Below are positions 19,604 through 53,206 of a stretch of 64,000 nucleotides of DNA, piece by piece; position 1 is the first letter of the stretch, and every line of letters starts with the position of its first letter. The stretch comes from an uncultured Spirochaetota bacterium (lineage in GTDB: Bacteria; Spirochaetota; Spirochaetia; SZUA-6; Fen-1364), in NCBI GenBank assembly GCA_963734545.1, contig CAVTHO010000003.1, positions 352,001 through 416,000 on the forward strand, written 5' to 3'. The notes under the pieces are model-generated. The model had not been told where the DNA came from, ran no database searches, and saw only the letters and a list, made by a program, of their open reading frames with translations. The position numbers and the translations under genes were made by a program.

Positions 19604-19705
19604 CCAGAGCGGTACTCCGCACTCGGCGCCCCTCGCCGTCCCTGGGCCCTACGGGGCGCCTTCCGTACATCCTGTACTCGGCGCCCCTCGCCGTCCCTGG
19701 CTACG
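19604..19705. repeat. Composite cluster of palindromic elements (REP/BIME-like)
   Basis: ccagagcggtactccgcact (19604-19623) recurs at 21118; 25-bp direct repeat at 19621-19645 and 19676-19700; nested hairpins. Confidence 0.8.
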
Positions 19706-21050
19706 GATATATTCTCGAGATGGTCCTCGGGAATGGGATGCACTCCCTGATGTGCGGGCTGCCGCAAATCCATGCGAGTGTGCGCTCGAGACCGATGCCA
19801 TAGCCCGAGTGGGGGACCGAGCCGTATTTGCGCAGGTCGAGGTACCAGCCGTAGGTGTCCTCCGGCAGCTTCTCCTCGTGGATGCGGGCGAGCAGCTTCT
19901 CCAGGGAGTCTTCACGCTGGGATCCGCCAATGATCTCCCCGTAGCCTTCCGGGGCAAGAAGGTCGGAGCACAGGACAGTCTCGGTGTTGGCGGGGTTCTC
20001 TTTCATATAGAAGGCCTTGGCCTTTTTCGGATAGTTCATGACGAAGATGGGCTTCTCGTGCAGCTTCGTCAGGATAGTCTCGTCCTCTCCGCCCAGGTCG
20101 TCCCCCCACTGGATTGCGCTGCCCTTGGACTGGAGTGTCTTCACCGCCTCGGCGTAGTCCATTCGGATGAAGGGCGTAGTCACCTTCTTGAGCGGCTCAC
20201 TGTCCCGCTCCAGCGCCTTGAGCTCTTCGGGGCAGTTGGCAAGAACGTCCGAGACCACCCTGCTCACCATGTCTTCCTGCAGTCGCATGTTGTCTTCATT
20301 GTCCGCGTAGGCCACCTCGGCCTCGAGCATCCAGAACTCGGTGAGGTGCCTGCGGGTCTTGGACTTCTCCGCGCGAAAGGTCGGTCCGAAATTGTAGACC
20401 TTGCCGTACGCCATGCAGGCCGCCTCGAGGTAGAGCTGGCCGGTCTGGGCGAGGTACGCATCCCCCAGGTCGAAGTAGGGCACGGTAAAGAGTGTCCCCG
20501 CGCTTTCTCCGATGGAGCCCGTGAGAATGGGAGTGTCGATGAGCAGAAAGCCTCTCTCGTGGAAGAAGGCGCGAAAGGAGGTGATGGCCTGGTCCCGAAT
20601 GCGCATGATGGCGTAGGGCCGGCTGGAGCGCAGCCAGAGGTGCCTGTTCTCCAGAAGGAAGTCGATGCCGTGTTCCTTCTTCGAGATGGGATAGTCGTCT
20701 GCCGGGTTCTGCACGACATCCAGGCCGGTCACGGTGAGCTCGAAGCCGGAAGGAGCGCGCTCGTCCCTGCGCACCTTGCCGCGCACCTTGACGGAGGCTT
20801 CCATTTTCAGGCCAGCGATTGCCGCGAAGCATTCGGCACCGCAGCCGGTCTCCTCCGCCACGCCCTGTATCCTGCCGCTGCCGTCACGGAGCTGCAGGAA
20901 GGCGATCTTTCCCTTGGACCGGAGATTGTACAGCCAGCCGTTGATCTGGACGTCGCTATCGACGTGTTTTCCGATCTCGGATATCGAAACCAGCTCGCCA
21001 CGGTACTCCGTGGATTCTGCTGCGCCACGGTACTCCGTGGATTTATCCAT
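19701..21050 (-). CDS. asnS: Asparagine--tRNA ligase
   Basis: OB-fold GW..NLR.KGKIAFLQLRDGSG, YLAQTGQLY, GPTFRAEKSKTRRHLTEFWM, GEIIGGSQRE, PHSGYGIGLER; RBS aaggag 6 nt upstream. Confidence 0.95.
   Translation of the reverse strand: MDKSTEYRGAAESTEYRGELVSISEIGKHVDSDVQINGWLYNLRSKGKIAFLQLRDGSGRIQGVAEETGCGAECFAAIAGLKMEASVKVRGKVRRDERAPSGFELTVTGLDVVQNPADDYPISKKEHGIDFLLENRHLWLRSSRPYAIMRIRDQAITSFRAFFHERGFLLIDTPILTGSIGESAGTLFTVPYFDLGDAYLAQTGQLYLEAACMAYGKVYNFGPTFRAEKSKTRRHLTEFWMLEAEVAYADNEDNMRLQEDMVSRVVSDVLANCPEELKALERDSEPLKKVTTPFIRMDYAEAVKTLQSKGSAIQWGDDLGGEDETILTKLHEKPIFVMNYPKKAKAFYMKENPANTETVLCSDLLAPEGYGEIIGGSQREDSLEKLLARIHEEKLPEDTYGWYLDLRKYGSVPHSGYGIGLERTLAWICGSPHIRECIPFPRTISRIYP
20996..21043. repeat. 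Two tandem hairpin elements (period 27) in the asnS 5' coding end
   Basis: cgccacggtactccgtggatt at 20996-21016 and 21023-21043; encodes STEYRG twice. Confidence 0.9.
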
Positions 21051-21117
21051 GAGACGCTCCTTCGAGATGTGTATTGGCCGACTGGACGCCCCGGCGAACG
21101 ACGTCCGCGCCCGGCGG

Positions 21118-21137
21118 CCAGAGCGGTACTCCGCACT
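21118..21137. repeat. Intergenic palindromic element
   Basis: Identical 20-mer to 19604-19623; 17-mer core reverse-complemented at 48463-48479. Confidence 0.85.
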
Positions 21138-21140
21138 TCG

Positions 21141-22214
21141 CTACACGAACTTCTCTCGCTCGCGCAGGATGACGATATCGCCCTTCTGCTCCAGCAGCTG
21201 GATGTACTCCAGCAGGTCCTGGATTGCGCGGTCGACTTCCGACTTCCTGACCTGGCCCAGGGCGTCTCCCTCCAGGCGGATGAGCTCCCGCCTGCGCTCG
21301 GAGATCGACGAGAGGAGGCGCTGCCGTACCTGCTCTTCCACTCCCTTCATCACCAGGGCGAGCTCCTTGTCCGCATAGTCGCGCATGACCTTCTGGAGGT
21401 TCTTGTCGGGAAGCTGGAACACGACGTCCATGGTGTAGAGGTTCTTCCTGATCTGGTTGGCCATGTTCGGCTCCAGCTCGGCCAGGATGGCCTGTTCCTT
21501 TCCCGGGTCCATGAATCGAAGGATCTCGGTGAGCGCGGTCTTGCCGTCCACTTCCTCGGTCACCGGCTGCCCCTGCTCGCGCACCTTGCCGCGCAGGACC
21601 TCCTCCGCCTTGCGGATGACTTCGGCATCCACCTGCTGCATTTTCGCAATGCGCGGCACCACTTCGTGCTGCACCTCCGGGCTGAGCGCCTGGAGGATCC
21701 TGGCCGCAAGCTTCGGCTCCAGGTGGGCGAGGATGAGCGCCGCGACCGGTACCGACTCCTCTCTCAGGAGCGTGATGGCCTGGTGAATGTCGATGTCCTG
21801 GAGGAAGGTGAAGGGCGGCGGTGCCATGTCCTTTCGGACCTTCGCGAGGATCTTTTCAGCTTTCTCGGCCCCGATCGAAGCGGTCAGCATCTCCTGGGCC
21901 TTCTCGATGCCGCCCTGCGCGATCAGGTCCTTTGTCTCCCGGATGTAGCCGAACTCCTCGAGGATCTTGGATGCTTCCTTCTCCTCGATGTGCTGCGTGC
22001 GGGCAATTTCCAGGGTGATGCCCTCGACCTCCTCCGGTGACATGTGCCGCAGCACGCGTGCCGCTTCGTCCTTCCCGAGGAGCATCAGGAACTGGGCCGC
22101 CTTTCGATAGCCCGTGTCCCTGCTCGTCTCCTTGATGAAACCGCGGACGCTGGGGTCTCTCCGGGGCTTGCCGGCTTTCTGCGCCTTGCGGTACTCGTCG
22201 ATGGGACCTGGCAT
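21141..22214 (-). CDS. fliG: Flagellar motor switch protein FliG (orphan paralogue)
   Basis: RKAAQFLMLLG, GGIEKAQEML, PFTFL, ILAHL, FliG C-domain SISERRRELI. Confidence 0.85.
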   Translation of the reverse strand: MPGPIDEYRKAQKAGKPRRDPSVRGFIKETSRDTGYRKAAQFLMLLGKDEAARVLRHMSPEEVEGITLEIARTQHIEEKEASKILEEFGYIRETKDLIAQGGIEKAQEMLTASIGAEKAEKILAKVRKDMAPPPFTFLQDIDIHQAITLLREESVPVAALILAHLEPKLAARILQALSPEVQHEVVPRIAKMQQVDAEVIRKAEEVLRGKVREQGQPVTEEVDGKTALTEILRFMDPGKEQAILAELEPNMANQIRKNLYTMDVVFQLPDKNLQKVMRDYADKELALVMKGVEEQVRQRLLSSISERRRELIRLEGDALGQVRKSEVDRAIQDLLEYIQLLEQKGDIVILREREKFV

Positions 22215-22376
22215 GAACGGTATGATACCCCCGGACCGGGGGCAGGTCAATGAAGGACGACGAATGTCACGGGGTACCGTGACCGGGGGGTGGGATCGAC
22301 GGCATGCACGCAGCCCCGCATGGTGCAGGGCTGCGTGGCCGCCGTGTGGTGACGCGTCGTCGTCCCGGAACGACTC

Positions 22377-22691
22377 CTACATTGCCACGAGGTCGAAAAT
22401 GTGTACTTTTCCGCCCTCCCCGATGATGGGGCAGTCCCTGACGAGCCTGGCCGCTGCGGCAAGATCGGCTGCCTGGAGGATGCTGTACCCATTGGAGACA
22501 TTGCCGCTGGTTCCGTCCTGGATCCCGGAAGAGGTCACTGTCTTGGAGCCTCCGAACGGGTTCCCGGGCTCGACGACGGATCCGCCGAGCTTGCCGAACC
22601 ACGACTTCCACACCTTCATGGAAGCTTCTCCTTCCTGGGGCGTTGTGGGGGCTTTTCCCCCGCTGTAAAGAACGATGAACTTGTTCATCAA
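22377..22691 (-). CDS. YciI/DGPF-like small protein
   Basis: KFIVLY..W..W...GNPF...NGYSILQAADL..A.....CP; RBS ggagga. Confidence 0.7.
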   Translation of the reverse strand: MMNKFIVLYSGGKAPTTPQEGEASMKVWKSWFGKLGGSVVEPGNPFGGSKTVTSSGIQDGTSGNVSNGYSILQAADLAAAARLVRDCPIIGEGGKVHIFDLVAM

Positions 22692-22698
22692 ATCCTCC

Positions 22699-22745
22699 CT
22701 TCCGCGGTAGTCCGCGGAGTTGTCTTCCGCGGTAGTCCGCGGAGT
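22699..22745. repeat. Two tandem intergenic hairpin elements (period 25)
   Basis: cttccgcggtagtccgcggagt at 22699-22720 and 22724-22745. Confidence 0.9.
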
Positions 22746-22835
22746 CTTTATCGTTGAGCGTGTGCTCTTACCTGATATGACGTATCGGCCGCCCCGAACT
22801 AATCGCTCACCGCGAGAAATGCGAGGGTTTCCCGT

Positions 22836-24890
22836 TTGCCCGCACCGCCCGGGAGCGGTACCTTCTTCGGGGAGAGCTCACGCCTGAACCGCCTTGCTAA
22901 AGAGAAAAGCCCGTACCTCCTCCAGCACGCCGGGAATCCTGTGGACTGGTACGCCTGGGGGGAGGAGGCATTCCGCAGGGCGAAAGACGACGACAAGCCT
23001 GTTTTCCTTTCCATCGGCTACGCCACCTGCCACTGGTGCCATGTGATGGCGCACGAGTCGTTCGAGGATGAGCGCGTCGCGGCGCTCATGAACTCGACAT
23101 TCGTGTCCATCAAGGTGGACCGCGAGGAAAGGCCGGACATCGACGGTCATTTCATGGGGATCTGCCAGCTCCTCACCGGGACGGGGGGGTGGCCGCTGAC
23201 CGTGGTCCTCACCCCGGAAGGCAAGCCGTTTTTCGCCGGCACGTATATCCCGAAAGACAACGCGTACGGCCGCAGGGGAATGCTCCAACTGGTTCCGGAA
23301 ATCGCGGAGCTGTGGGCCGCCCGGCGTGCGGAGGTGGACGCCTCCGCCGAAGAAATCATGAGAGAGCTCGCCAACCGCGCGAGCGGGAAGCCGGGCACCG
23401 GCGGCACTCCGGACCCGGCAGCGGCGGTTCAGGCGGCCCGGCAGCTTTCCCGGATGTTCGATCCTGAGAACGGCGGGTTCGGTGACGCTCCCAAGTTCCC
23501 CATGCCGGTCCTGTACTCCCTGCTGCTGCGCGCATGGGAACGCGGCAGGGACCCGGAAGTGCTCCGCGTGGTTGAACGGAGCCTCACCGCGATGCGAAAC
23601 GGGGGCATATACGACCAGGTAGGATATGGATTCCACCGCTACTCGACCGACTCCCGCTGGCAGGTCCCTCATTTTGAAAAGATGCTCTACGACCAGGCGC
23701 TTCTGCTTCTGGCCTACACCGAGACCTGGCAGGCCGCTGGCAGGGACTTCTACCGGCGCACCGCGGAGGAGATAGCCACGTACGTCCTGCGCGACATGAC
23801 CTCCCCGGAAGGGGCGTTCTACTCGGCGGAGGACGCGGACAGCGAGGGCGAGGAAGGGAAGTTCTACTCCTGGACCGGACACGAGGCTGCCGCAGCGCTT
23901 GGAGAGGATGAGCGCCGGCTCTTTGCCAAGACCTACGGTGAGCTCCAGCCGGGGCAGAACATTCTGCACAGGGAACGCACGGACATCTCGCCGCCGGGCC
24001 GGCCCGAAGAGCTGCTTTTCGCCGCGCGGGAGCGAAGGAACCGGCCATTCAAGGACGACAAGATCCTTGCCGATTGGAACGGTCTCATGATCGCGGCGCT
24101 CGCCCGCGCGGCCGGCGCGTTCGACGATCCGCGGCTTGTCGCGGCCGCGGGGAGGGCCGCGGATTTCGTGCTGCACCGCATGTGCCCGGAGGGCAGGCTC
24201 TGCCACCGGTTCCGTGACGGGGAGACAGGCATCACCGCATTTGCGGAAGATCACGCGTTCCTCGCATGGGGCCTCCTCGAGCTGTACGAAGCAGGGTTCG
24301 AGGAGCGATACCTCGTACAGGCACTCGACCTGGTGCAGGCCCTCGTTGCGCACCACTGGGACGCGGAAGACGGCGGATTCTTCCAGACCGCCGCGGATGC
24401 GCCCCCGCTTCCGGGGGGGCGCGTGAAACACCTGTCGGACGGCGTGATTCCCTCCGCGAACTCGGTGGGGCTTCTCGTGCTGCTGAAGCTCGCACGGATT
24501 ACCGGCAGCGTGGAGTACCAGCGCATGGCGGAGGCCATCATGCGCCTGTCAGGGGTCCGGGGCGGCGAAGACGCGTATTCACATGCGTTCTTCCTCTGCG
24601 CCATGGACATGGCGGCCGGCCCCTTTTTCGAAGTTGTCGTGGCGGGAAACCCCGATGCCGGCGACACGCGCGCAATGGCGCGCGAGGTGCGCCAAAGATT
24701 CATCCCCCGCAAGATTCTCGTTCTCCGGCCGATGGGAGATGCGGAGCCGCCGATCGTCCGGATTGCGCCGTTTACGAAACCGCTCTCCGCGCTGAATGGC
24801 AGGGCTGCCGCCTACGTGTGCCGTGATCACGCGTGCTCCCTGCCCACGGACGACCCGGCACGGCTGCTCGATCTCCTGAGCGCCAGCTAA
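22836..24890 (+). CDS. Thioredoxin-domain DUF255 (YyaL/SPATA20-like) protein; start uncertain
   Basis: [59 protein letters not shown]. Confidence 0.9.
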
Positions 24891-25711
24891 AAGGTCACGT
24901 GGTCAGGATGCGGTCCGATACGCGCTTCCGCGTCGAGGGCGGTGATCCGTTCGACATCCGCCGGCTCGAGCTGGAAATCGAATACGCGGCTGTTCTCCAG
25001 AATGCGTTCCCGGTGGATCGATTTGGGAATGGTGACGACACCGAGCTGGAGGTCCCAGCGCAGGATGACCTGCGCCGGGGTTTTTCCGTACTTTGCGGCG
25101 ATCCCGGCAATGACGGGATTGTCCAGGCTGCGTCCCCTTGTGAGGGGTGACCATGCTTCATGCCGCACCCCCGCGCGCTCGTCAAAGGCAAGGAGATCCT
25201 GCTGGACGAGGAAGGGATGGAACTCCACCTGGTTCACCGCGGGCACCACGGGAGAGGCCTTCATGACGCTCTCCAGGTGATGCACGAGAAAATTGCTCAC
25301 TCCTATCGCGCGCGTCTTCCCGTCCGCGTAGATCTTCTCCAGCGCCTTCCATGTTTCCAGAAGCTTCCCCTCGACGGGCCAGTGGATGAGGTACAGGTCC
25401 AGGACGTCGAGGCCGAGGTTCTTCCGGCTGCGGTCGAATGCCTTCAACGTACCCTGGTATCCCTGGTCCTGGTTCCATACCTTGGTGGTGATGAACACCT
25501 TTTCCCGGGGAACCCGACTGTCCTTGAGCGCCCGGCCGACGTCCGCCTCGTTCTGGTAGTACGCCGCTGTGTCGACGTGGCGGTAGCCTATCTCCAGCGC
25601 CCACCGAACGGCCTGTTCCGTCTCCTTGCCGGGCGGGGATTTGAACACACCCAGACCGACCCATGGCATCTCGACTCCATTGTTGAGCTTCACGCTCGAC
25701 GAAAGGTCCAT
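24887..25711 (-). CDS. Aldo/keto reductase
   Basis: [41 protein letters not shown]. Confidence 0.92.
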
Positions 25712-25773
25712 GAATCTAAGAAAACATCTTTGCCCTTCGTTGTCCACTGCTGGTACCTTTGACGGGGGTGACT

Positions 25774-26484
25774 ATGTTGGAAGGCAAAATTGTCGCGATT
25801 TCAGGGGCGGCCGGCGGGCTGGGGCCGACCGTGGCGCGCGCGTTTTTCGAGCTCGGGGCGACGCTCTGCGCCGGCGGGCGGAGCAGGGAAGGCCTCACGG
25901 GAATGCTGGACGCGCTCGGGGTCCCGCCGGCGCGATGCATGGCAACGGCTGTCGATCTGCTGGACGTATCCGCGGCAAATGATTGGGCGGAAGCGATCCT
26001 GAAGAGATTCGGCAGGATCGACATCGTCCTGCACCTGGTGGGCGGCTACAAGGGCGGCACGACCATCGCGGAGCTCGACCCCGCTGACTGGAGCCCGCTC
26101 GGCGACATGCTCGTGCGGACAACCCTGCACGTGGCCCGCGCGTTTGCCGGGCCTCTCAAGGCCGGCGGGTGGGGCCGGTTCATCGGGGTCACCTCCCCCA
26201 AGGCCCAGGCGCCGACCGCGAAGACCGCTCTGTACGCCATGGGTAAGGCTGCCTCCGACGCGCTGGTGCTGGCCCTTGCGGACGAGCTGCGGGGCACGGG
26301 CGCCACGGCGAATCTCATCGTGGTGGATTCCATAGATAATCCCGAGACACGGGCTGCGCAGCCGAAAAAGGCATACGGAAAATCGACTCCCGCTGAGGAG
26401 ATCGCGGCAGCCATGGTGTTCCTCTGCTCGGAGGGGGCTGCCACGATCAACGGGGCGCGCCTGCCTCTGACCGGCCGCGGCTGA
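25774..26484 (+). CDS. Short-chain dehydrogenase/reductase
   Basis: ISGAAGGLG, YAMGK (YxxxK). Confidence 0.85.
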   Translation: MLEGKIVAISGAAGGLGPTVARAFFELGATLCAGGRSREGLTGMLDALGVPPARCMATAVDLLDVSAANDWAEAILKRFGRIDIVLHLVGGYKGGTTIAELDPADWSPLGDMLVRTTLHVARAFAGPLKAGGWGRFIGVTSPKAQAPTAKTALYAMGKAASDALVLALADELRGTGATANLIVVDSIDNPETRAAQPKKAYGKSTPAEEIAAAMVFLCSEGAATINGARLPLTGRG

Positions 26485-26500
26485 GCGAACCTCTTTTGTA

Positions 26501-26529
26501 TTGACACCTCGGGAGGGCGATTCTACACT
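26501..26529 (+). promoter_or_regulatory. sigma70-type promoter of the cheY-cheX-kinase operon
   Basis: TTGACA, 17 nt, TACACT; RBS ggaggt before ATG 26551. Confidence 0.75.
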
Positions 26530-26550
26530 TCGGGGCGCCGGAGGTCTCAT

Positions 26551-26940
26551 ATGAAAGTGCTTGTCATCGACGATTCTGCCGTCATGAGAAGGATTCATCG
26601 GAACACCCTCACGGAGCACGGCATCCCCGAAAGCGACATCCTCGATGCATCCGATGGGGAGGCTGCCCTCAGGATCGCCACCGAAGGGCACATCGGGCTC
26701 TTCCTCGTGGACTGGAACATGCCGAAGCTCGACGGCTTTCAGCTCGTGAAGGCGCTGCGGGCCATCCCCCATTATGCCTCCACGCCGATCATCATGATCA
26801 CCTCCGAGGCGGCGAAATACAACGTGATGGAGGCCATCAACGCGGGGGTCACCAACTACGTCGTGAAGCCGATCAAGGGTGACATCCTGTGGCAGAAGCT
26901 GGCGAAGTACGTCGATCCCGGGGCCGGGGGCGCCGCATGA
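26551..26940 (+). CDS. cheY: CheY-like single-domain response regulator
   Basis: KVLVIDDS, DWNMPKLDG, IIMITSE, YVVKP. Confidence 0.85.
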   Translation: MKVLVIDDSAVMRRIHRNTLTEHGIPESDILDASDGEAALRIATEGHIGLFLVDWNMPKLDGFQLVKALRAIPHYASTPIIMITSEAAKYNVMEAINAGVTNYVVKPIKGDILWQKLAKYVDPGAGGAA

Positions 26941-27398
26941 AAGCGAAGTACATCAATCCGTTTCTCGCCGCCTCCATGAATCTGTTCAAGGAACATCTCG
27001 GCGTCGATGTGCGCAGCCTCAACCCGTTCGTGCGCAAGGATCCCACGGCCCTGGAGGAAGTCTCGGGGATTATCGGTCTTGCAGGGGAAACCACCGGCGC
27101 GGTGGTGCTCAGCTTCTCACGGGTGACCGCGATGAACATCGTTTCCGTCTTCGCCGGCAAATCGTATACAGCGCTCACCAACGAAGTGCTGGACGGAGTG
27201 GGAGAGCTGGTGAACATCATCGCCGGCAATGCCAAGAAGGACCTGCTGGATTTCCGCATCTCGATCTCCCTGCCGGGCGTCATCGTCGGATCGGCAACCA
27301 AGATCCATTGGCCCGAGGGCGTGCCCGTCATCACCATCCCCTTTGACTCGAACCTCGGGAGCCTCAGCGTGAATGTCTCGTTGAAAGAGGCCGAATGA
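26937..27398 (+). CDS. cheX: CheX phosphatase
   Basis: YINPFL, VSGIIGLAG, GELVNIIAGN, ISLP; ATGA coupling with cheY. Confidence 0.9.
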   Translation: MKAKYINPFLAASMNLFKEHLGVDVRSLNPFVRKDPTALEEVSGIIGLAGETTGAVVLSFSRVTAMNIVSVFAGKSYTALTNEVLDGVGELVNIIAGNAKKDLLDFRISISLPGVIVGSATKIHWPEGVPVITIPFDSNLGSLSVNVSLKEAE

Positions 27399-29620: not shown

Positions 29621-29631
29621 GGGAAGCGGGG

Positions 29632-30171: not shown

Positions 30172-30222
30172 GGGCCCACCTCCCTGCGCCATGATACGCC
30201 GGGGCAGGGTGAAGCGCAATGA

Positions 30223-31443: not shown

Positions 31444-31454
31444 GTGCCGATATC

Positions 31455-31527
<73 letters not shown>

Positions 31528-37579: not shown

Positions 37580-40500
37580 TTACGCGAACAGCGTGAGCTG
37601 CCGGTCGCGCGGCGGGCGGCGCGGGGTCTTGTCCACCAGGCAGCGCGCAGGTATTTCCGACAGGAACCGGCTCGGCAGGGCGCCCTGCACCTTTCCATGC
37701 GCGCGGCGACTGGCGCAATGGCTGATGAAGAGAAAGTCGCGTGCCCGGGTAACGGCGACGTAGAACAGCCGGCGCTCCTCCGCCAGGTCATCCGGCAGGC
37801 GCGCAGAATCCACGGAGTACCGTGGCGTGACTCCTTCCTCCGCGCCCGCGATGAACACGACCGGGAACTCCAGGCCCTTGGCCGCGTGGAATGTCAGGAG
37901 AGCCACCTTCTGCGCGGCCCGCGCCCACTCGCTTTCTCGCGCGCAGAGGGAAACACGGGAGAGGAAACCGCGGAGGTCCGACCCGTGTTCCGCCGCGAAA
38001 TCGCGCAGAGCTTCTTCTCCGAGCACAACGTCCGGTGAGGAGGTGTCGAACCGCACCACGCTGCTCCGCGCATCGTCAATGAGAGCGCAGACACCTTCCG
38101 AGCCGGCCTTCCGCGCAAGCTCGGCTCCGCGGAGCGAGCCAGTCCTCCACCGACGCGGCGGGGCTTCCGCCGGCCGCGTGGGCGCGGAGGATGCGCAGTG
38201 ATACCGGGTCTGCCGGGCATGACCACCAGCCTGAGCGCCGCGACAAGGGAACGGAAGGGCTCCTCTTCGGCGAGCGGGGTGCCGGCGCCGAGCGTGAGCG
38301 GCAGCCCGGCGCCTGCCAGCGAGGGGAGAAGCGCGTCCCGGACAGCGCGCGTGCGAAAGAGGACCGCGATGTCCGAGAACGCGTAGCCGCCGCGGTCACG
38401 GTACGGCGTACTCGCCGAACGGGTACTCCCGTATTCAGCGACATTTTCGAGCTCGCGTCCCCTCGCCGCGTCCACGGACACGGAATCCACGCCCCCGACA
38501 AGGTCGCTGATCGAACCGGCAATGATTTTTCCTTCCTCCTGCGGGTCCGAGACCCTGAGCAGCCGTACCCTGGCGCCTTCCGGCCGAACCGCAGCGAGCA
38601 GGGGAGCGCCCTGCGCGCGCGCACGGTGGAAATCAATGCGTCGGCAGAGGCTACGATGGCCCCGGCAGATCGATAGTTGCGTGTCAGGTAAAAGGTGCGG
38701 GCGCCGGTCTGCTCGCCGAATCGGAAAAACAATTCCCTGTCTGAGCCGCGAAAGCCATAGATGGCCTGGTCGGGGTCCCCGATGCCCAGCACCCGCTCCA
38801 CGGAGGGGCAAAGCTGCATCAGAAGCTCGTACTGGGGCTTGTTGATGTCCTGGAGCTCGTCGATGGCAATGAGACCGTATCGAGCGGAGAGCTCGGCTCG
38901 GAATGCTCCGTCGGCCTGCAGCGCGGCATTCAGCCGCGTCACCAGGGACGAGAGGTCCGCGCCGCCGATGCGACGCAGCTCCTCCTCGTACCTGTCCATT
39001 ACGATTTGCAGGTCCGTTCCCGGTTCCTCCATCCCTTCCCAGCACCGCTCCATGCGCTCCGCAAGGGCGCCGCGGTACGCCGCGGATTCGGCATTGCGGT
39101 ACGCCGCGGATTCGGCCTTCACCCGACCGGTCACCTGCCGGAAGAAGCATTTCCAGCAGCTCGGCCCTCTGCGAGGGGGCATAGACGGCAAGGAGCGAGG
39201 GATCGCGCTCCCTGAGGACCGACCAGCAGAAGGAATGAAATGTCGCTGCGGTGATCTTGTCAGCCTGTCCCGGGCAGCAGGAGCGCAAGCCGGTCTTTGA
39301 GCTCTCCGGCCGCCCGGTTGGTAAAAGTGAGCGCAAGGACCCGGCCCGGCTCGATGGCCCCGGTGCGCACCTGACGGGAGATCCAGGCCACCAGGAGTCG
39401 GGTCTTCCCGGTGCCGGGACCTGCCAGGACCAGGCTGCGCCGGGAATCGCAATCAACGATGGCGCGTCTGTTCGTCGTCGAGAATCGCGGGGTCCTCCAT
39501 GGTATCCTGCGCGCGCGCGCGCAGCCTGAAGGGGGAGGGCCCGCGCGCCTTCCGGGACGAGGATGCGCGTCTCGGCTTGAAAGAGCTCATCCTGTCCCCG
39601 GAGCCTGATCAGCTCCGCGTCGTTGAAGACCCGGATGACTCCGAACTCCCCGTCATAGCCGGGCCGGGGATCGATTCTTCCCTCCCTCATGCGCCGCACG
39701 GCCTCGGCCAGAAGGCTGCCCTGTGAGCGCGAGATGTCTTCCAGCGCCGCGTCGAGGAGGAACCCGTATTCGTTCCCGAACGCCGTGATGATCCGGCCGT
39801 ACAGGCCGGTGACCGCTTTCGAGCCGGAGCCGCTGCCCGCAATTTCCGCGAGGAGCTCGGGGAGGGGTATGATGTAGCTGAATCCTTCAGCCCTCCGCGG
39901 CGGCAGCGGCTCGGCCCTGTCCGCGAGCGCGAGCACCCGGTTGAGCACGCCCACGGTGACGGGCGTGCCGCACACGGGACACATGCCGCCCGTTTTCAGC
40001 GTCTGGTCCGGCTCCATGCAGACCCCGCACTTGCGGTGGCCGTCGTAGTGGTACTTTCCCTCTTCAGGGTAGAACTCGAACGTCCCCAGGAAGCCCTCGC
40101 CGGTCCGGAGGGCATCGACAAGGCCCTGCCAGCTTTGCTCGGTGTCGAGGAGATTCGCCTCCCTGCCGAGCCTGCCCGGCGAGTGCGCGTCCGAGTTCGA
40201 GATCAGCCGGTAGCGGTCGAGGGCGCTCCAGCGCCAGTTCATGAGCGGATCCGAGGAAAGGCCCGTTTCCAGCGCGAAGATGTGCGGGGTGAGCTCCTCG
40301 AAGCAGTCTTCGATGCGGTCGAAGCCCGACTTCGAGCCGAAGAGGGAGAACCATGGCGTCCAGATGTGGGCGGGGATGAGGAACGAGTCAGGCGAAGTCT
40401 CCAGGAGCAGGGAAAGCAGGTCCTTCGGGTCCAGCCCCAGGATGGGCCGGCCGTCCGAGGCGATGTTGCCTATGGTCGCGAGCTTCGTGCTCATCCGGCG

Positions 40501-40852
40501 CGCGTCTTCCAGGGTGGGCACGCCGATCAGGCTGTGCACTTTTCGCACCTGCCCCTGCTTCTTGTAGATGGAGCTGATTTCCGTGGTCAGGATGAATCGG
40601 ACCGGGTGGTCCGCCGGGCACAGCCCCTTCGAGGGGCGAGCCCTCGGGCGGTTCCCTGAGCGCGTACAGACCGTCCTTCTCCACGAGCCGGTCTTCCAGC
40701 TCCGCGAGCCACCCGGGGTGAGTGAAATCACCGGTGCCCACGACCCCGATGCCTTTGACCCTGGCCCAGCGATAGTAGCCCGCCAGGTCAGCCTCCCTGC
40801 TCGTGGCCCGCGAATATCGGGAGTGCACGTGCAGGTCGGCAACGTATCTCAT
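37580..40852 (-). CDS. PHP/EndoQ-like nuclease fused to a UvrD/PcrA-like helicase; about 6 frameshifts
   Basis: ADLHVHSRYSRATS, GTGDFTHP, PAHIWTPW, NSDAHS, GKYHYDGHRKC, CPVCG; LVLAGPGTGKT (39402-39433), TFHSF, DELQD, GDPDQAIYGFRG, NYRS, HAAKGLEF, EERRLFYVAVTRA. Confidence 0.85.
38397..38436. repeat. Double-hairpin element inside the uvrD-like CDS
   Basis: cggcg-tact-cgccg a acggg-tact-cccgt; homologues at 49675-49714 and (reverse) 43812-43840. Confidence 0.85.
39072..39116. repeat. Tandem hairpin element (period 24) inside the uvrD-like CDS
   Basis: gcggtacgccgcggattcggc at 39072-39092 and 39096-39116. Confidence 0.9.
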
Positions 40853-43813: not shown

Positions 43814-43890
43814 GGGGGTACCCTTTCGGCGAATACGCCGGTTCTGGGCGCCGCGGTAGTCGGCCGCGGCCCGGAATGCTATTTTTCATC

Positions 43891-46620: not shown

Positions 46621-46627
46621 GCCTGTC

Positions 46628-48454
46628 ATGGGATCCCTTGCCGATCTGGTTTACCTCCCCCGTCCCCGCGATATCCGGCCTGCGGCCGGTCACTTCAAGG
46701 CGCTCGCGGGCGCGCGGATCGCTCTCCTGGGCAACGTGCAGCCCCTCCTCTCTTCCGCGGTCCTCCTGCAGAAAATCGCGCATGATAGGGGGGGCATGGA
46801 GTGGCACATCGCGGCAGGCGCGGGCGGTGATGCGCCTGCCATCGCTCTTTCCATGACGGGCAATGCGGCGGCCGAGCACTATCGTGTGAGGATCTCCCCT
46901 GCGGGGATCGACGTGACCGCGTCAGATGCGGCGGGAATGTTTCGTGCGGTGACGACTCTCGGCCAGGTCATCCGGCAATCTTCGGGCGCCCTGCCTGCCG
47001 GAGAGATCGTCGACTGGCCGGATTTCCCCGTGCGCGGTCTCATGCTCGATATTTCCCGGGACAAGGTGCCGACCATGGAGACCCTGTTCTCCCTGGTGGA
47101 CCTGCTGGCTGACCTCAAGATCAATCACCTCCAGCTCTACACGGAGCACACCTTTGCCTATTCGGCGCACCGGGAGGTCTGGGCAGAAGCGAGCCCGATG
47201 ACAGGTGAGGAGATTCTGGCCCTGGACGCGTACTGCCGGGAGCGCTTCATCGAGCTTGTTCCCAATCAGAACTCTTTCGGCCACATGAGCCGCTGGCTTA
47301 CCCACGCGCGGTATCGGGACCTTGCCGAATGTCCGGATGGGTTCGACTCGCCGTGGGGCTTCGAGCCGTACGGCCTCGATCCCACCAACCCGGCCTGCCT
47401 CGAGCTCCTTGACGGCTTGTATGCCGAGCTCCTGCCCCATTTCGGAAGCCGGCTCTTCAACGCTGGCTGCGACGAGACGTTCGATCTTGGCATGGGCAGG
47501 AGCCGGGAGCTCTGCGAGCGGGTGGGCAAGGGCCGCGTCTACCTTGATTTCCTTCAGAAGATCCATCGGCTGACGACCGCCCATGGGCACACCCTCCTCT
47601 ACTGGGGGGACATCATCATGCAGTATCCCGCGCTCGTGCCCGAGCTCCCGCGGGACGGGATTGCCCTGGAGTGGGGCTACGAGGCGAACCATCCTTTCGA
47701 GGAGCACGGGGCCCGGTACCGTCAAGCGGGCGTGCCCTGGTGGGTCTGCCCCGGCACTTCCTCCTGGAACTCCATCGCGGGGCGCACGGACAACTGCCTG
47801 GCGAACATCCGCGCCGCGGCGCGCGCCGGGCTGACGCACGGGGCCACCGGTTTTCTGAACACGGACTGGGGTGACAATGGGCACTGGCAGGTCCTGCCGG
47901 TCAGCTTTCTGGGCTACGCGGCCGGAGCGGCTCTTTCCTGGTGCCTCGAAGCAAACGGCGCAACCGATTTCAGCCGTGAGCTGGACATGCATGTCTTTCG
48001 CGACGGGGCGGGCATCATGGGCACTCTTGTCCGGGACCTGGGCAATACCTATCAGCACGAAGGGCCGCTGAAACACAATGGGAGTGCGCTCTTCTATATC
48101 CTGCAGAGCCGCAAGGACGTCATTGAGCCGCGGGAGCTCTCATCCGCCGCGCTCGGAGAAGCCCGGGCATGGGTCGATTCGTCAGCGTCGAGGCTTGCCG
48201 AGGCCCGGATGGTTCGGCCTGATGCAGCGCTCATTCTCGAGGAATACGCCAACACCGTGCGCCTGCTTCACTGCGCGTGCGACCACGCGCAGGCTCTCCG
48301 GGACGGCACGCTGGATGACAACACGGTTATGGCCCGGGCCCGCGATGAGCTTCGCTTCGCCCTCGGTGAGTACCGCAGGCTCTGGGTGCGCCGGAACAGG
48401 ATAGGCGGCCTGGCGGACAGCGTGCGGAGGCTGGAAAGACTGCTCCCGTCTTGA
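46628..48454 (+). CDS. GH20-family beta-N-acetylhexosaminidase
   Basis: DWPDFPVRGLMLDISR, NSFGH, NAGCDETFDLG, TDWGDNGH. Confidence 0.85.
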   Translation: MGSLADLVYLPRPRDIRPAAGHFKALAGARIALLGNVQPLLSSAVLLQKIAHDRGGMEWHIAAGAGGDAPAIALSMTGNAAAEHYRVRISPAGIDVTASDAAGMFRAVTTLGQVIRQSSGALPAGEIVDWPDFPVRGLMLDISRDKVPTMETLFSLVDLLADLKINHLQLYTEHTFAYSAHREVWAEASPMTGEEILALDAYCRERFIELVPNQNSFGHMSRWLTHARYRDLAECPDGFDSPWGFEPYGLDPTNPACLELLDGLYAELLPHFGSRLFNAGCDETFDLGMGRSRELCERVGKGRVYLDFLQKIHRLTTAHGHTLLYWGDIIMQYPALVPELPRDGIALEWGYEANHPFEEHGARYRQAGVPWWVCPGTSSWNSIAGRTDNCLANIRAAARAGLTHGATGFLNTDWGDNGHWQVLPVSFLGYAAGAALSWCLEANGATDFSRELDMHVFRDGAGIMGTLVRDLGNTYQHEGPLKHNGSALFYILQSRKDVIEPRELSSAALGEARAWVDSSASRLAEARMVRPDAALILEEYANTVRLLHCACDHAQALRDGTLDDNTVMARARDELRFALGEYRRLWVRRNRIGGLADSVRRLERLLPS

Positions 48455-48516
48455 GTCCACGGAGTGCGGAGTACCGCTCAAACGGAGAGTGCTCGCTTCC
48501 GCTCGTGGGTCCGTTT
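48453..48516. repeat. Palindromic element cluster between convergent genes
   Basis: gagtccacgg-agtgcggagtaccgctc followed by an aaacgga...tccgttt hairpin. Confidence 0.75.
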
Positions 48517-48539
48517 GTACCGTGGCGCGCTAGATCGCG

Positions 48540-49669
48540 CTAGATATAGTTCAGCCCATAGCCCGGCAGCGGCAGAGGGAATAACCGGGCAAGGATTTCC
48601 CGCAGAGTCCCGTCCTCTGCCGCGGGCGGCGTATGCGCGACCGAGCCGAACACGAGGGCGGTGAGATCTGCGTCATCGGCAATGGCGAGCTCCGCACCCT
48701 TGTATCGGAAAACAACAGCCGGCCCGCACTGGATCGTAAGCCCTGCGCGTTCCCCCTGGGTCAGCCTGGAAGCGATGTGCCCTTCGATTGCTCCGAAGAA
48801 ACCCGCCCGGTCGAGGATCTTCATCGTCCCGTGGAATCCGCGCGGAGACGAGGAAAGGTCCCCGGCATGGGCGAGGGTTTCCATTTCAAGGTCCGTTGCA
48901 GTTGTCTCGATCTCCACGCCGGGGCGCCGGTGGCGGCACAAATCGCCGGCAGCGCGGCAAGGAGCGCGTGCCGGGACCCGGCAATTTCAAGCGCCTTGAG
49001 AACTCTTTCTCCGCTCCGCTGCTCGGGCCCCGTGGTGCACACGTAAGCGGCGAGCTTCTGCCCCAGCCGGCACACCCATGTGCGTCCGGGACGTGCGTGC
49101 AGCGAGCGCGACTCCAGGAGAGTCCGCATCTCCTCCATGCCGCGCTCGAACCGCACCGGTTCGGCCTGATACAGCGCAGCCATTTCAGGGATGTCACGGC
49201 CGGTCCATTCAGCCACGTCGCATCCCAGCCGGGGCAGGCTGCTGGTCTCTTCCACGCGCACGGTCCGCCAGAGTCCGGCGTCCACGCAGCCCATGCGCCT
49301 GTACAGCCCCCGGCCGCCGGAAACAAGGACAGCTACGGCTCCCTGCTCCGCTGACCGGGCAACCACCGCTTCCACCACGCGCCCTGCCATGCCCTGCCCG
49401 CGAAACTCCTCGAGGGTGCACACCGCTCCGACGAGCCCCACCCTGATCTTCGTTCCCGCAAGGCAGAGGTCACGCAGGACGCCGCCGGCCAGCGCCACCG
49501 GTCTTCCCTCGTCGAGCATGATCTGCAGGTTCTCCAGATTGTCCGCATCAAAGAGCGTGGGAAAGGACGTTCCCATGTCCGCATCGTCTCCGCGGCGGAA
49601 AACGGTGTTTGCAAGGCGGACCACCGCGTCCAGCTCGGCGGGCAGTACCGCCCTCGGTCCCTCGATCAT
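48540..49669 (-). CDS. GNAT acetyltransferase (Eis-like); frameshift at ~48922
   Basis: VGAVCTLEEFRGQGMA, LYRRMG; C-terminal part in ORF 48540-48941. Confidence 0.75.
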
Positions 49670-49770
49670 GGCGCCACGGTACGGGGTATTCCCCGAACGG
49701 GTACTCCCGTACTCCTTTGATTCATACTCCCACTATACACGGGCATGCGCGGACATGCAAAATAATCTCC

Positions 49771-50655
49771 ATGAAAAGGCGACCGACATCAAAAGACTGG
49801 CTCCCCCTCGCGCGCGCGGACGGGCCGGCCGTCGAGGCGCCCACCGGCGAAGCGTTTCGCACCGAGTGGATCGATTTCGACAGGGGCATCCGGGTCGGCA
49901 ACCTCGAGCCTCACGAGCGCATCACGCGCATTCTCAAGTTCCGCCTGGAAGAAGAGTACGGCACCGGATTCGTGACCGACCGGTGGGGGCGGGGCGTCTA
50001 TTGGCAATGGATCTGCTGGGTGCCCCGGGCGGATCGTGATGCCAAGCCCCTTTCGAGCAGCGTGAACTTCGGCTGCGCAAAGCTCTTCATATCGCAGGAC
50101 CGCCCCGCACGGGTGTTCCAGTGCGGGCTCCAGGTGGAGCGCGGCGCCGAATCCGCGTCGCGGTACTCCGCGGATTCCGCGTCGCGGTACTCCGCGGATT
50201 CCGGCGAAGGAGAGGTGGTGCTCCAGGACGACTGGGACTGGCACCGGCTCATGCGGCAGTGCGCGGCGAAAACGCCGCTGGACGACGAGCTTCACCGGCT
50301 GGTACGGAAGGAAGGATTCGTGGCCCGTATCTGGGGATGGCCGGGAGCGCCTTCATTCACCGCTGCAAATTACCGGTCGGCGGCCCAGATCCGGCAGGCC
50401 GCGCGGAAGGCCCCCCGGGACCGGTGGGCGGGTTTCCAGCTCTACTATCCAATGCCCGAGCCGGAAGTGCGCGCCACCGGGGGCTACGATTTCGTGCAGG
50501 CGATCATGGGTGCCTTTTCCGAGGTGATTCCCGCCATGAACCTCTGCATGCAGGTCACATTGGCTCCGGCACGCCCGCTCAGCGCGCCCGGTCCCGGATC
50601 GGCGACTCCTTCAGGAACAGCGCGAGGCAGACAGCGGCCAGCGTCAGGGCGATGA
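49771..50655 (+). CDS. Hypothetical Trp-rich protein carrying an in-frame hairpin duplication
   Basis: Coherent ORF (DRWGRGVYWQWICW, DWDWHR); SASRYSAD x2 at 50152-50199. Confidence 0.65.
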   Translation: MKRRPTSKDWLPLARADGPAVEAPTGEAFRTEWIDFDRGIRVGNLEPHERITRILKFRLEEEYGTGFVTDRWGRGVYWQWICWVPRADRDAKPLSSSVNFGCAKLFISQDRPARVFQCGLQVERGAESASRYSADSASRYSADSGEGEVVLQDDWDWHRLMRQCAAKTPLDDELHRLVRKEGFVARIWGWPGAPSFTAANYRSAAQIRQAARKAPRDRWAGFQLYYPMPEPEVRATGGYDFVQAIMGAFSEVIPAMNLCMQVTLAPARPLSAPGPGSATPSGTARGRQRPASGR

Positions 50656-51799
50656 GGGCCACGAGGGAGCTGGTCATCGAGCCGCTGGGGGACTTCAGCG
50701 CATCCATCGCGAATATGAATACGATTCCGGAAAACTGACCCATCACGATGAGCATGCTGTTCGAAGTGCCCTCGGGAGCGGGAAGGGTGATCTCGGCCCC
50801 GTACTGGAAGCCGATTGGCCCTGCGCTCAGCAGGAACATCCCGAACACCACGGCGGAGACCGCCAGCAGCCACCACGTCGTGGCGAATGTGAGGCCCGCC
50901 AGGCCGGGGAGCAGCCCCGCGAGGGCGAGAATGATGAATGGCTTCCGCCTTCGCGTGGCATCGGAGATGAGCGGAATGACGACGGCGCCGACGACTCCGC
51001 CGATCAGCATCAGGCCGCCCGCCAATCCGGCCTGGGCCGTGGTAAATCCGCGCGGCCCGACGATCTCCTCGATCCACGTGGTGATTCCATTGAACAGGCC
51101 GAGCCCGATGAAGAATATGATGAGCAGGAGGATGAAATCCTTCTGCCGGATCATGCTTTTCAGCCCGTCGAACATGAGCGTTCTCTCGTCATGACCGGCA
51201 GGCCCCGGGGGCGTCGGCGGATGCTCGCGGGCCGCGACGACGAAAAGCACCGCGGCGAGGCAGGACACGGCCCCGCCGATCAGGAGCATGCCCTTCATTC
51301 CATAGCTGCCCATCAGGAGAGGGGTCAGTATCAACGACGCGAGGATTCCGAGGTAGATGGAGAGGGTGCCCAGCCCCGCGGCCGTTGCCCGTTCATCATT
51401 CAGGAACCAGCGGGCGCCCAGCTTCGTGATGGCGCCGAGTATCAGCGGCTGGCCGATGGCGATGCCGATCTGGGAGACGAAGACGAGCGCGAAATTGTCC
51501 GCGAATATGCCGCGGGTCAGGGCGAACACCGCGGTAAGAATCGCGCCGAGGGACACGGACTTCCGGAACCCCCAGGTGTCGATGAGCCAGGCCGACGGGA
51601 GGAACAGGAGGATGTAGACCACCATGAAAACCATGGACAGGAGGCCGATCGCGATATCGGAGGCGGCGTAGAACTTCATCGCGTCGCTCGTGATGGGGGC
51701 GAATGTGATCCAGAGGCCCTGGTTCAGCGCGGTGATGAACATGAACACCGCCAGGATCACCCACCGGTATCCGTACGTCCTGATTGTTCCTTCCTCCAT
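50579..51799 (-). CDS. MFS transporter
   Basis: About 12 hydrophobic segments; YRWVIL, WITFAPI, ARWF..ERATA. Confidence 0.88.
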   Translation of the reverse strand: MEEGTIRTYGYRWVILAVFMFITALNQGLWITFAPITSDAMKFYAASDIAIGLLSMVFMVVYILLFLPSAWLIDTWGFRKSVSLGAILTAVFALTRGIFADNFALVFVSQIGIAIGQPLILGAITKLGARWFLNDERATAAGLGTLSIYLGILASLILTPLLMGSYGMKGMLLIGGAVSCLAAVLFVVAAREHPPTPPGPAGHDERTLMFDGLKSMIRQKDFILLLIIFFIGLGLFNGITTWIEEIVGPRGFTTAQAGLAGGLMLIGGVVGAVVIPLISDATRRRKPFIILALAGLLPGLAGLTFATTWWLLAVSAVVFGMFLLSAGPIGFQYGAEITLPAPEGTSNSMLIVMGQFSGIVFIFAMDALKSPSGSMTSSLVALIALTLAAVCLALFLKESPIRDRAR

Positions 51800-51862
51800 C
51801 TGGCCCTCCTCTGTCAAAAACCCACTATATAAGCGCGTGTTCCCGGTATCAAGGAAACAACT

Positions 51863-53042
51863 TCACGTGCGCGTCGCGACGGAGCGTTTCACCATGGCGA
51901 CGATCGCAAGGGAGAGCACGACAAGCACAAGGGTGAGGCCGAGATAGAACCAGAACCCTCCGCGCAGGCCGATGCTTTCCGCGACGACTGCCATGAGGAA
52001 CGGGAAGGTGAATGAGCCCAGACCGCCTCCGGTCGCGACGGTCCCCACCGCAAATCCGCTCTTGAAGTAGCGGCCGACGATGGTCATGACGAGCGGGTAG
52101 AGCGCGGACAGGCCGAGTCCCGTCAGGAAGACTCCCACTGCCACCGCGGCGGTGGAGCTCACCACGAGAACAAACCCCAGCGCGACCGCGGACAGCAGGG
52201 AGAGACCCAGCACCAGGTATTCCTGGCGGGTGCCCCGGTAGAGCACCGAGACTCCGAGCCGGCCGGCGAAAGATACCCAGCCAGAAAAGCGAAACGGAGA
52301 AGGCGCCCGTGGAGGTGCTGGTTGCGAGCACCTTCACGAAATACTCTGAAACCCACGTGGAGACACCGAGCTCCGCTCCCACGTAGAGGAGCAGGAAGAG
52401 CGTCAGGAGGAGCAGGACGGGGCTGCGCAGGAGCCGGAGCCCGTGTCTCTGTCCATGTTCGTCCTCCTGGGCGAGCCGCGGGAACCTGGCCGTGCCGAAG
52501 AGAAGCGCCATGAGGGCAATCGGCCCGGCCGCGGCCAGGAAAACGACCGTCCCCCGAATGCCCAGGCTCATGAGAATGCCCACGGCGGCCGGTCCCACGA
52601 TTGCTCCCACGGAAAAGGCCGCATGCATGAGGTTCATGAGCCTGCTCTGGCCCTTCCGCTCCATGTGGATGACCTCGAGATTGGTCACCACCTCGATCGT
52701 GCCCTGTCCGAGCCCGATCATCAGGTTCAGCGCCAGATTGAGCCACGGTGAACGCCACCGCATGAAGAAGAGCATGCAGACCGCAATGAGCAGCAGGCCG
52801 GTGACCAGCACTGTCCGTGGGGAGAACCTCTGCACGAGAAAGCCGCAGAGGAATGTCGAAAGGAAGTAGCCGATGGCGCTGGCAGCCAGCACGACCCCGG
52901 TGAGGGTGTACGACCAGTGGAACGTCCGGATGATCTGGGGGAGCGCCGCACCGATTATGGTGAAGAGGATCCCGAAAATCACGAAGCCGGCAAGGAAGAG
53001 GACATACAGGCGCCGTGTCTCGCGGTTGAGTGACTGCATCAT
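51863..53042 (-). CDS. MFS transporter (FucP/TsgA-like); frameshift at ~52270
   Basis: IGAALPQI, MNLMHAAFSVGAIVGP, LYVGAE; C-terminus in ORF 51863-52246. Confidence 0.85.
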
Positions 53043-53206
53043 ACGTGTGATGTCTATCTATAGAGGATCGCATCGCTCTGGTCAAGACATCGCGGTATTC
53101 CGCGGATTGAGCGCCTGCCGACATCGTCGTATTGTGACTTCGCCGTTTTTGTGCTATATCCGGAACTGCATCTCCACTGACACACCGAAAAGCCCGGAGC
53201 CTGATT

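Follow-up and report, generated by a model that had tools for sequence, protein, structure and literature searches.

Can a hairpin unit of 24-27 bases behave as a mobile repeat that settles between genes and also, in frame, inside them? The question is raised by a stretch of 64,000 nucleotides (the window) from an uncultured Spirochaetota bacterium, positions 352,001 to 416,000 of contig CAVTHO010000003.1 in the metagenome assembly GCA_963734545.1. We refer to this assembly (5.14 Mb, 10 contigs, 63% GC, 89% complete) as G000, the window being G000:C3:352001-416000; G-numbers denote the species of the genus that were compared (21 including G000). An earlier note on the window had listed 14 copies of a hairpin and suggested a possibly undescribed selfish palindrome that adds peptides to proteins. 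As the best explanation we consider it likely that the hairpins are genus-restricted, probably selfish mini-palindromes which resemble repetitive extragenic palindromes (REPs) and are tolerated in genes much like Rickettsia palindromic elements (RPEs).

The hairpin unit and its distribution

All 14 listed copies were present. The core CGGTANNCCG matched 16 times in the window, while dinucleotide-preserving shuffles gave 1.55 matches on average and none of 100 shuffles reached 16. Matches were located at 19610, 21001, 21028, 21124, 22270(-), 22705, 22730, 37813(-), 39073, 39097, 48467(-), 50161, 50185 and 53093; two more, at 24495(-) and 44777(-), lack the flanking consensus and are likely due to chance. 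The whole genome contains 530 core matches, with TACT as the commonest loop (n=131). A position-weight scan detected 518 genome copies at 15 bits or more versus 14 in the reversed-sequence control, and 435 versus 2 at 18 bits or more, so that the motif exceeds expectation in the test that the note had proposed. In agreement with it, the scan found nothing in the first 19,500 bases of the window; nor was there a match beyond 53,111. The copies are the following:

19604..19625, plus strand: hairpin of sub-family C, GAGCGG-TACT-CCGCAC, in the spacer that separates the convergent genes 17396-19510(+) and 19701-21050(-)
20993..21046, plus strand: two units with a 27-base period, codons 2-18 (DKSTEYRGAAESTEYRG) of the class-II tRNA synthetase gene 19701-21050(-)
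21118..21139, plus strand: sub-family C hairpin in the spacer between the FliG and tRNA synthetase genes
22262..22287, minus strand: single intergenic unit GTCACGG-TACC-CCGTGAC-ATTC with a weak scan score (15.0 bits)
22697..22752, plus strand: two TAGT-loop units repeating every 25 bases, immediately upstream of the start of a 103-residue open reading frame (ORF), 22377-22688(-)
37800..37830, minus strand: one unit in the UvrD_C part (Pfam) of a PHP/UvrD-like helicase gene, predicted reading VTPRYSVDSA
38395..38440, plus strand: one unit, its loop holding a nested 30-base double mini-hairpin, GGCGTACTCGCC GAAC GGGTACTCCC, with GTA on either side
39065..39120, plus strand: two units repeating every 24 bases, again in this helicase gene, minus-strand reading AESAAYRNAESAAYRG; near this array the frame of the gene shifts in the assembly
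48463..48480, minus strand: sub-family C hairpin just 3' of the stop codon of gene 46628-48454(+), within a dispersed repeat (48457-48527)
49671..49722, plus strand: composite, an outer hairpin with two mini-hairpins, GGGGTATTCCCC and GGGTACTCCC, in its loop
50153..50204, plus strand: two units with a 24-base period in ORF 49609-50655(+), reading SASRYSADSASRYSAD
53085..53111, plus strand: single unit, 51 bases upstream of the start of the MFS transporter gene 51849-53042(-)

The hairpin makes up 16 bases of the unit and consists of a 6-bp GC stem, CC(R)CGG/CCG(Y)GG, and a 4-base loop, TAYN; a tail GGATT(C/T) and a short GC-rich spacer follow (flank consensus C-C-R-CGG-TA-Y-N-CCG-Y-GG-A-T-T). 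For statistics we used 483 copies in 324 arrays, taken from the position-weight scan. The pair flanking the core was G/C in 351 and A/T in 78 of the 483 copies (G/T 15, A/C 18, other 21), which bears out that stems vary yet keep pairing. Predicted folds of the units as single-stranded DNA range from -6.7 to -9.5 kcal/mol (-8.9 kcal/mol for the hairpin at 19604..19625). Loop T and loop A are each 91% conserved and the tail ATT is conserved too, neither by way of pairing; GGATT stands 3' of the hairpin in 278 of the 483 copies. When all the genome's perfect hairpins (stem 6 bp, loop 4 bases) were ranked by loop, TACT (94) came first, TACC (67) fourth and TATT (60) sixth, with CGCG (80), CGGC/GCCG (69) and GCGC (62) also ranking between TACT and TATT.

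Single units account for 228 of the 324 arrays, and the largest array has seven. Periods span 23-28 bases: 24 (61 cases), 27 (27), 26 (19), 25 (12) and 23 (9); the tandem periods of 27, 24, 24 and 25 that had been reported for the window were confirmed. Neighbours at most 100 bases apart share their orientation in 165 of 187 cases (opposite in 22), hence the arrays run mainly head-to-tail. Four forms can be told apart:

Sub-family A: GCGCC-R-CGG-TAYN-CCG-Y-GGATT(C/T), usually in head-to-tail arrays
Sub-family B: GTAGCCCTTCCGCGG-TAYN-CCGCGGAGTTGGATGG with a second hairpin after it, 47 copies with a GGAGT tail, starting with GTAG
Sub-family C: GAGCGG-TACT-CCGCAC, 12 genome copies of GAGCGGTANNCCGCAC, in the window at 19610, 21124 and 48467
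Composite: a unit whose loop holds two mini-hairpins, GGSGTAYNCSCC GAAC GGGTAYTCCC, 11 in the genome, in the window at 38395-38440 and 49671-49722

The listed copies had been taken for one family. This holds for the main family, but the copies at 19604, 21118 and 48463 fall below the 12-bit scan threshold and look like a related yet separate group, sub-family C, and the one at 22266 is weak (15.0 bits). Dispersed repeats of 55-120 bases carry the sub-family C hairpin at 19588-19706, 21076-21141 and 48457-48527 of the window, and BLAST found copies of them also in G003, G018, G008 and G007, which are free of the main motif. The genus thus harbours several repeat families of different ages.

The exact 19-mer CCGCGGTANNCCGCGGATT occurs 81 times in G000. 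Of the 20 further species in the genus, 12 contain it, the highest count being 79, and the reversed pattern was absent everywhere. By contrast, the 19-mer was missing from 20 of 20 genomes that represent the order's other genera and from 300 of 300 other Spirochaetota (125 genera). Across these Spirochaetota genomes the family is restricted to the genus. A phage origin was rejected, just one viral contig having a single match.

Filled and empty sites in related species

Related species share 85-90% DNA identity, with many filled and empty sites between them. The class-II tRNA synthetase (asparaginyl/aspartyl type; Pfam tRNA-synt_2 and an OB fold from residue 34; closest named records from uncultured Spirochaetota) has two units in G000, DKSTEYRGAAESTEYRG before ELVSISEIG, and one 24-base unit in G014. 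In 10 other species the protein starts directly with M-E/N/Q-x-V and contains no unit. The Shine-Dalgarno sequence and the ATG are common to filled and empty orthologues and, because no alternative start codon follows the units, these should be translated.

A second example is the main UvrD, encoded outside the window. Its 35-residue block GPGDVDAKSAGDVDAKSAGYVDAESAGYVGAGVGA is present in G000 only and absent in all 14 other readable orthologues, including those of G002 (91% identity) and G014 (95% identity). This comparison covers the 15 genomes with a readable segment; the G016 row was dropped as it matched another locus, and G018, G009, G004, G011 and G001, with partial or broken matches, were left unaligned. 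The orthologues of both proteins therefore bear out the suggestion that the peptides are additions.

Within the window, the PHP/UvrD-like helicase gene at 37580-40842(-) has at least four separate insertion sites across species. The site at 37813 holds no unit in G017, one in G000 and two each in G014 and G002, the G000 unit being a 24-base insertion relative to G017. At 38395 there is no unit in G017, G015 and G006, one simple unit in G014, three units in G002 and the nested form in G000. No unit was found at 39073 in G014, one in G002 and two in G000, and G014 has an extra array at a place that is empty in G000. The G000 gene is readable only across three frames and that of G014 has one break; the broken frame in G000 could indicate a pseudogene or indels of a (long-read) assembly. 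The G002 orthologue is an intact ORF of 1101 residues with six units.

Outside the helicase, the site 50161/50185 has two units in G000, one in G014 and none in G002, G015, G006 or G017. Together with 37813, 38395 and 39073 it provides the empty orthologous sites that the earlier note had called for. Neither G014 nor G002 has a clean unit at 53093, and the weak unit at 22262..22287 is kept as one unit in G014. The array 22705/22730 consists of two units in G000 and one in G014. We also compared three DNA sequencing runs, X1-X3, as stored contigs; the best runs retain 0.21-0.28 of sampled words and few contigs bridge an array, hence their evidence on copy number is at the level of contigs rather than reads. 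A contig of X3 joins 22698 directly to 22753 and hence has no unit of array 22697..22752.

A 150-kb block that is syntenic between G000 and G014 contains 13 sites. Two sites had equal numbers (one of them weak and possibly a chance match), six differed in number or structure, four were filled in just one of the two genomes and for one no anchor could be found. The stems differ as well: at 37813 the stem is CCACGG/CCGTGG in G000 and G002 versus CCGCGG/CCGCG in G014, whose second unit has CCGCTG/CAGCGG. Such paired changes could reflect selection on the hairpin, template switching between its arms or the replacement of one copy by another.

As judged by these alignments, the comparison shows that separate units of some 24 bases have arisen where relatives have an empty site, and that further units are then gained or lost head-to-tail. 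Such gains and losses leave sister species with unequal copy numbers at most of the sites they share. From these changes in presence and copy number we infer that the family is mobile and selfish.

Spacers around the repeats likewise vary among close strains, to judge from the contigs. The FliG-tRNA synthetase spacer measures 90 bases in G000 and is shorter and different in G014 and other species; contigs of X1 and X2 have a 28-base insertion behind 21139, adjoining the FliG stop codon. A contig of X2 skips 19584-19676.

Copies inside genes

ORFs were called with our own codon-statistics gene finder, a crude tool that covers 85% of the genome and misses some real genes, and counts inside and outside ORFs are therefore approximate. 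These calls place 118 of the 324 arrays within predicted ORFs and 162 between them; the other 44 overlap an ORF end. In terms of copies, 177 of 483 (37%) are inside and 306 outside, corresponding to densities of 40 and 405 per Mb.

Array spacings inside ORFs are multiples of three in 54 of 56 cases, compared to 10/39 at ORF ends and 37/64 between ORFs (ORF-internal versus the rest, 47/103: Fisher P=8e-12). This is the difference in length modulo three between genic and intergenic copies for which the note had proposed to test. The multiples of three between ORFs may reflect an intrinsic preference for 24 and 27 bases or arrays in missed genes. Depending on strand and frame, one unit is read as different peptides:

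Opposite orientation, frame 1: AESAEYRG / AKSAGYVD, 54 ORF copies
Same orientation, frame 0: SAPRYSAD, 40 ORF copies
Opposite orientation, frame 0: PNPRNTAA, 36 ORF copies
Same orientation, frame 1: LGAAVPGG, 30 ORF copies
Two arginine-rich frames: 9 and 5 ORF copies

Loops with a stop codon are rare in ORFs. TAGT was seen in 1 of 177 copies inside versus 22 of 306 outside, and TAAT in 1 copy inside versus 11 outside; the claim that TAGT occurs only between genes thus stands as a strong depletion, with one exception. Selection would filter the genic copies and leave those with lengths and periods in multiples of three, few in arginine-rich frames and few with stop-bearing loops. Given this filtering, we infer that the survivors are translated and add repeats of 8-9 residues.

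The 16 proteins with internal multi-unit arrays all carry Pfam domains. Some arrays lie between domains (response regulator-AraC, DEAD-Helicase_C, after a kinase domain) and others within them: UvrD_C is split in two, one array is in MacB_PCD and one in HATPase_c, where the domain covers 145 residues for a 111-position profile. The family sits in real genes, at linkers, loops and termini. Essential proteins are among the examples (the N-terminus of the tRNA synthetase, UvrD, a histidine kinase's ATP-binding domain), and the family offers a genome-scale view of how selection acts on a DNA parasite inside genes through length, frame and loop sequence. Intergenic arrays, for their part, showed no preference for gene arrangement (co-directional 95/1782, divergent 38/657 and convergent 28/409 spacers), nor were they biased in orientation with respect to genes (46 versus 49).

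For annotation, the arrays would account for unusual N-terminal extensions, inserts of low complexity and genes that look fused in these metagenome genomes. Two single ORFs each join unrelated genes across an array: G000:C7:117720-121325 (ABC permease and alpha-L-rhamnosidase, 1201 residues; L016) and G000:C4:201430-204096 (ABC ATPase domains and branched-chain permease, 888 residues; L009). These could be real fusions through in-frame arrays or assembly artefacts. An Lhr-type helicase at G000:C8:516517-520216 was called as two adjacent ORFs with an array in each (L020, L021); together with two UvrD-type genes it places several repair helicases among the hosts, by way of example.

Spread of the units and competing explanations

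New loci may arise through a sequence-specific DNA activity that reads the hairpin, the loop TA and the GGATT tail. The conservation of the loop TA and of the tail ATT, neither of which pairs, suggests specific recognition. Once in place, arrays might grow by replication slippage or unequal exchange, and it fits this that 35 of 324 arrays end in a partial unit versus a background of 0.9%. Stem complementarity could be kept by hairpin selection or by arm-to-arm template switching.

A TAG precedes the first unit in 39 of the 324 arrays, 23 times at offset -11 (mostly in the GGAGTT sub-family B) and 16 times at -10. TGA and TAA together occupy these offsets in only three arrays, despite shares of 59% for TGA and 31.5% for TAG among predicted stops. 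This TAG serves as stop codon for the upstream gene in 23 of the 39 arrays. In two such genes, unit-free species already end the gene at that TAG or at a TAA, so that in these two genes the unit landed one base 3' of an existing stop codon and, at these two sites, the TAG belongs to the target and not to the element. A subset of insertions would accordingly land one base 3' of a pre-existing TAG. All 11 copies of the nested piece lie in unit loops and nowhere else, with GTA(C) on either side, and outgroups show that the insertion at 38395 is derived. Here a 26-base double hairpin may enter the loop of existing units and duplicate GTA(C).

By analogy, this insertion pattern resembles the single-strand chemistry of HUH/Y1 enzymes (REP-associated tyrosine transposases, RAYTs, and IS200/IS605), which makes them a candidate enzyme class only. 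A PF01797 search gave one match in G000, an IS200-type Y1 gene at G000:C4:159537-160028 (L001) without the motif in its flanks. Y1 genes were present in 12 of the 21 genomes of the genus, namely in 9 of 11 motif-rich and 3 of 10 motif-poor genomes (P=0.03, uncorrected for relatedness). G000, G001, G002, G009, G010, G011, G013, G014, G016, G017 and G019 are rich in the motif, and G003, G004, G006, G007, G008, G015, G018 and G020 are free of it. The IS200-type elements, L001 and 11 loci in relatives (L104-L114), are about 580-720 bases long and end in CCACCGCC-TAT/TCT-GGCGGTGG hairpins that are unrelated to the repeat unit. A RAYT or REPtron was rejected as the mover on a search of G000 and the genus: PF01797 finds only the IS200 type, and no such gene is flanked by the motif, which also answers the earlier proposal to look for hairpin-flanked RAYT/IS200-like genes. 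In addition, 14 single genes bracketed by arrays were hand-picked from 81 pairs of neighbouring arrays 300-3500 bases apart (7 between arrays of opposite and 7 of the same orientation) and analysed with Pfam. Ten were ordinary genes (glycosidases, DHODH-like, histidine kinase, PAP2, LacI, DprA, decarboxylase, AraC, HAD) and four had no Pfam family; no nuclease or transposase was among the 14.

Several of our results weigh against probably selfish, mobile palindromes. Most insertions have no adjoining TAG, and aligned orthologous sites revealed no target-site duplication at insertions of simple units. Unit orientation has no clear link to GC skew (42/26 versus 23/23), the skew itself being weak. 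The PF01797 search of G000 and the genus detected no mobilising enzyme, although one could be missed in the 89%-complete G000, and the motif was found within 1.5 kb of none of the 12 Y1 loci. The association of Y1 genes with the motif is one among related species, and two motif-rich genomes have no Y1 gene. Finally, the gene calls are crude, the assembly appears to hold frame breaks and more than half of the intergenic spacings (37 of 64) are multiples of three as well.

For the question of how REP-like repeats spread without a RAYT, the hairpin family offers unusually clean material: very short units, filled and empty sites, a TAG-adjacent subset and nested loop insertions. It is possible, if doubtful, that a RAYT-independent and so far unrecognised activity reads the 6-bp hairpin, the TA-initial tetraloop and GGATT, and pastes 24-base units next to TAG or into loops. 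If true, no smaller mobile unit would be known to add in-frame peptide repeats to housekeeping proteins as a matter of routine, and protein length across the genus would have a natural source of rapid variation.

REPs are among the known repeats that come closest. Like a REP in the broad sense, the unit is a short high-copy palindrome in one lineage: the family is GC-rich, has hundreds of copies, is denser outside than inside the crudely predicted ORFs and occurs in some ORFs, including repair genes. The passages of Di Nocera et al. 2013 (PMC3733652) on which we draw describe REPs tagged with GTAG that are mobilised by RAYT (Y1 HUH) transposases, lie in part inside ORFs (notably of repair genes), often supply a TAG stop with their ends and form tandem head-to-tail groups. 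TAG stops at the edge and head-to-tail groups, as in the Thauera units with 5-bp stems of that account, recur here, and the 47 copies of sub-family B start with GTAG. Three marks of the GTAG REP/RAYT system are lacking, however. Most units have no GTAG (units within arrays have ATTC or ATTT there), and the unpaired tag that is conserved consists instead of the 3' GGATT plus the loop TA. The search gave no RAYT or REPtron, and units are arranged head-to-tail (165/187) rather than in the inverted pairs of REPINs and BIMEs. Unlike in REPs, 37% of the copies are inside ORFs. In its relevant part, the same paper lists CGTC repeats alone for Spirochaetes, and GTAG repeats for other phyla (PMC3733652). 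No description of the family turned up in the literature searched (REP, coding, tandem, hairpin and spirochaete topics), where motif strings were incidental in unrelated papers. The behaviour has already been described for GTAG REPs in the passages cited (PMC3733652), and of the "possibly undescribed" palindrome only the sequence family counts as undescribed.

Similar to RPEs, the palindromes lie in frame within functional genes, add peptides at tolerated places and have no known transposase; in the tRNA synthetase, UvrD and the 1101-residue helicase of G002 they are in frame, the gene is intact and orthologues are empty. RPEs are about 100-150 bases long and form single insertions, not tandem arrays. 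By this description the 24-27-base unit, its tandem arrays and the unrelated lineage set the hairpins apart. Mycobacterial MIRU minisatellites share dispersed tandem loci, unit numbers that vary between strains and frame-compatible unit lengths. MIRU units measure 46-100 bases, lie between operon genes and are not simple hairpins, whereas the units here are shorter, simple hairpins and also found inside genes. The nested piece, restricted to hairpin loops, recalls the insertion sequences IS1397 and ISKpn1, which insert into REP loops, but it has 26-30 bases and is non-coding. Miniature inverted-repeat transposable elements, or MITEs, are likewise small, non-autonomous and polymorphic in presence, and the nested 26-base piece has a GTA/GTAC target duplication. 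In contrast to MITEs (70-300 bases, terminal inverted repeats, regular target duplications), simple 24-base units show neither inverted repeats nor duplications; Correia/NEMIS and RUP are the MITEs named for comparison (PMC3733652, in the part used here). A CRISPR array was rejected on account of the 23-28-base period and the absence of unique spacers.

Among the alternatives to REP-like selfish palindromes, host function comes first, unlikely as we consider it. The hairpins would then mainly bind a nucleoid protein, gyrase, an IHF-like protein or a regulator, or act as RNA hairpins in transcript stabilisation or termination, and use would have driven their spread. The loop TA and the asymmetric tail are indeed conserved beyond the needs of pairing, many copies lie at gene ends or upstream of starts (53093, 22705; 24 arrays overlap gene 3' ends) and REPs in other bacteria have been reported to bind host proteins and affect mRNA (PMC3733652, same passages). 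Such sites are difficult to reconcile with intergenic arrays that prefer no gene arrangement or orientation, with presence and copy number shifting between sister species at most sites and with copies inside conserved enzyme domains. Nor is there a T-run after the hairpin or an Rfam family match. The Rfam scan of 19,000-54,000 yielded one tRNA and four sub-threshold chance matches, none on the repeat unit; the nearest, ASdes at 22298-22375, starts 11 bases from the unit 22262-22287.

Far less probable is a DNA-uptake-type sequence, spread by preferential uptake and recombination (molecular drive) and not by transposition. Uptake sequences are enriched in genome-maintenance genes, and the family is genus-specific, occurs in both orientations in genes and spacers, among them the repair helicases UvrD, UvrD-like and Lhr, in a genome with a DprA gene. 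We know of no report of competence in this lineage. The copies are 24-base insertions and tandem arrays rather than point changes, their density of about 1 per 10 kb is low for uptake sequences and the covarying stem indicates a folded strand. An uptake sequence formed by point substitution was rejected outright, filled sites being at least 24 bases longer than empty orthologues.

That the arrays are protein-level features, peptide repeats or linkers under selection with secondary DNA similarity, we hold to be scarcely credible. They do lie in frame, in linkers and at termini, but frame and strand turn a single DNA unit into no fewer than four unrelated peptides (SAPRYSAD, LGAAVPGG, AESAEYRG and PNPRNTAA), and of the 483 copies 306 are outside ORFs, where periods of 23, 25 and 26 occur. 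Chance, GC composition or an assembly artefact has a negligible probability, since shuffled and reversed controls were near zero and the family recurs in 12 other assemblies, even though this is a metagenome assembly with apparent frame breaks.

Apart from the repeats, ORF 49609-50655(+), host of the array at 50153..50204, has a positive coding score in that frame and no Pfam family. Some long ORFs were left uncalled by the codon-statistics finder, for example 10881-15524(+) in the window, where atypical composition or frame errors are possible. The tRNA gene lies at 31455-31527(+) of the window (Rfam, 70.5 bits) and is unrelated to the repeats.

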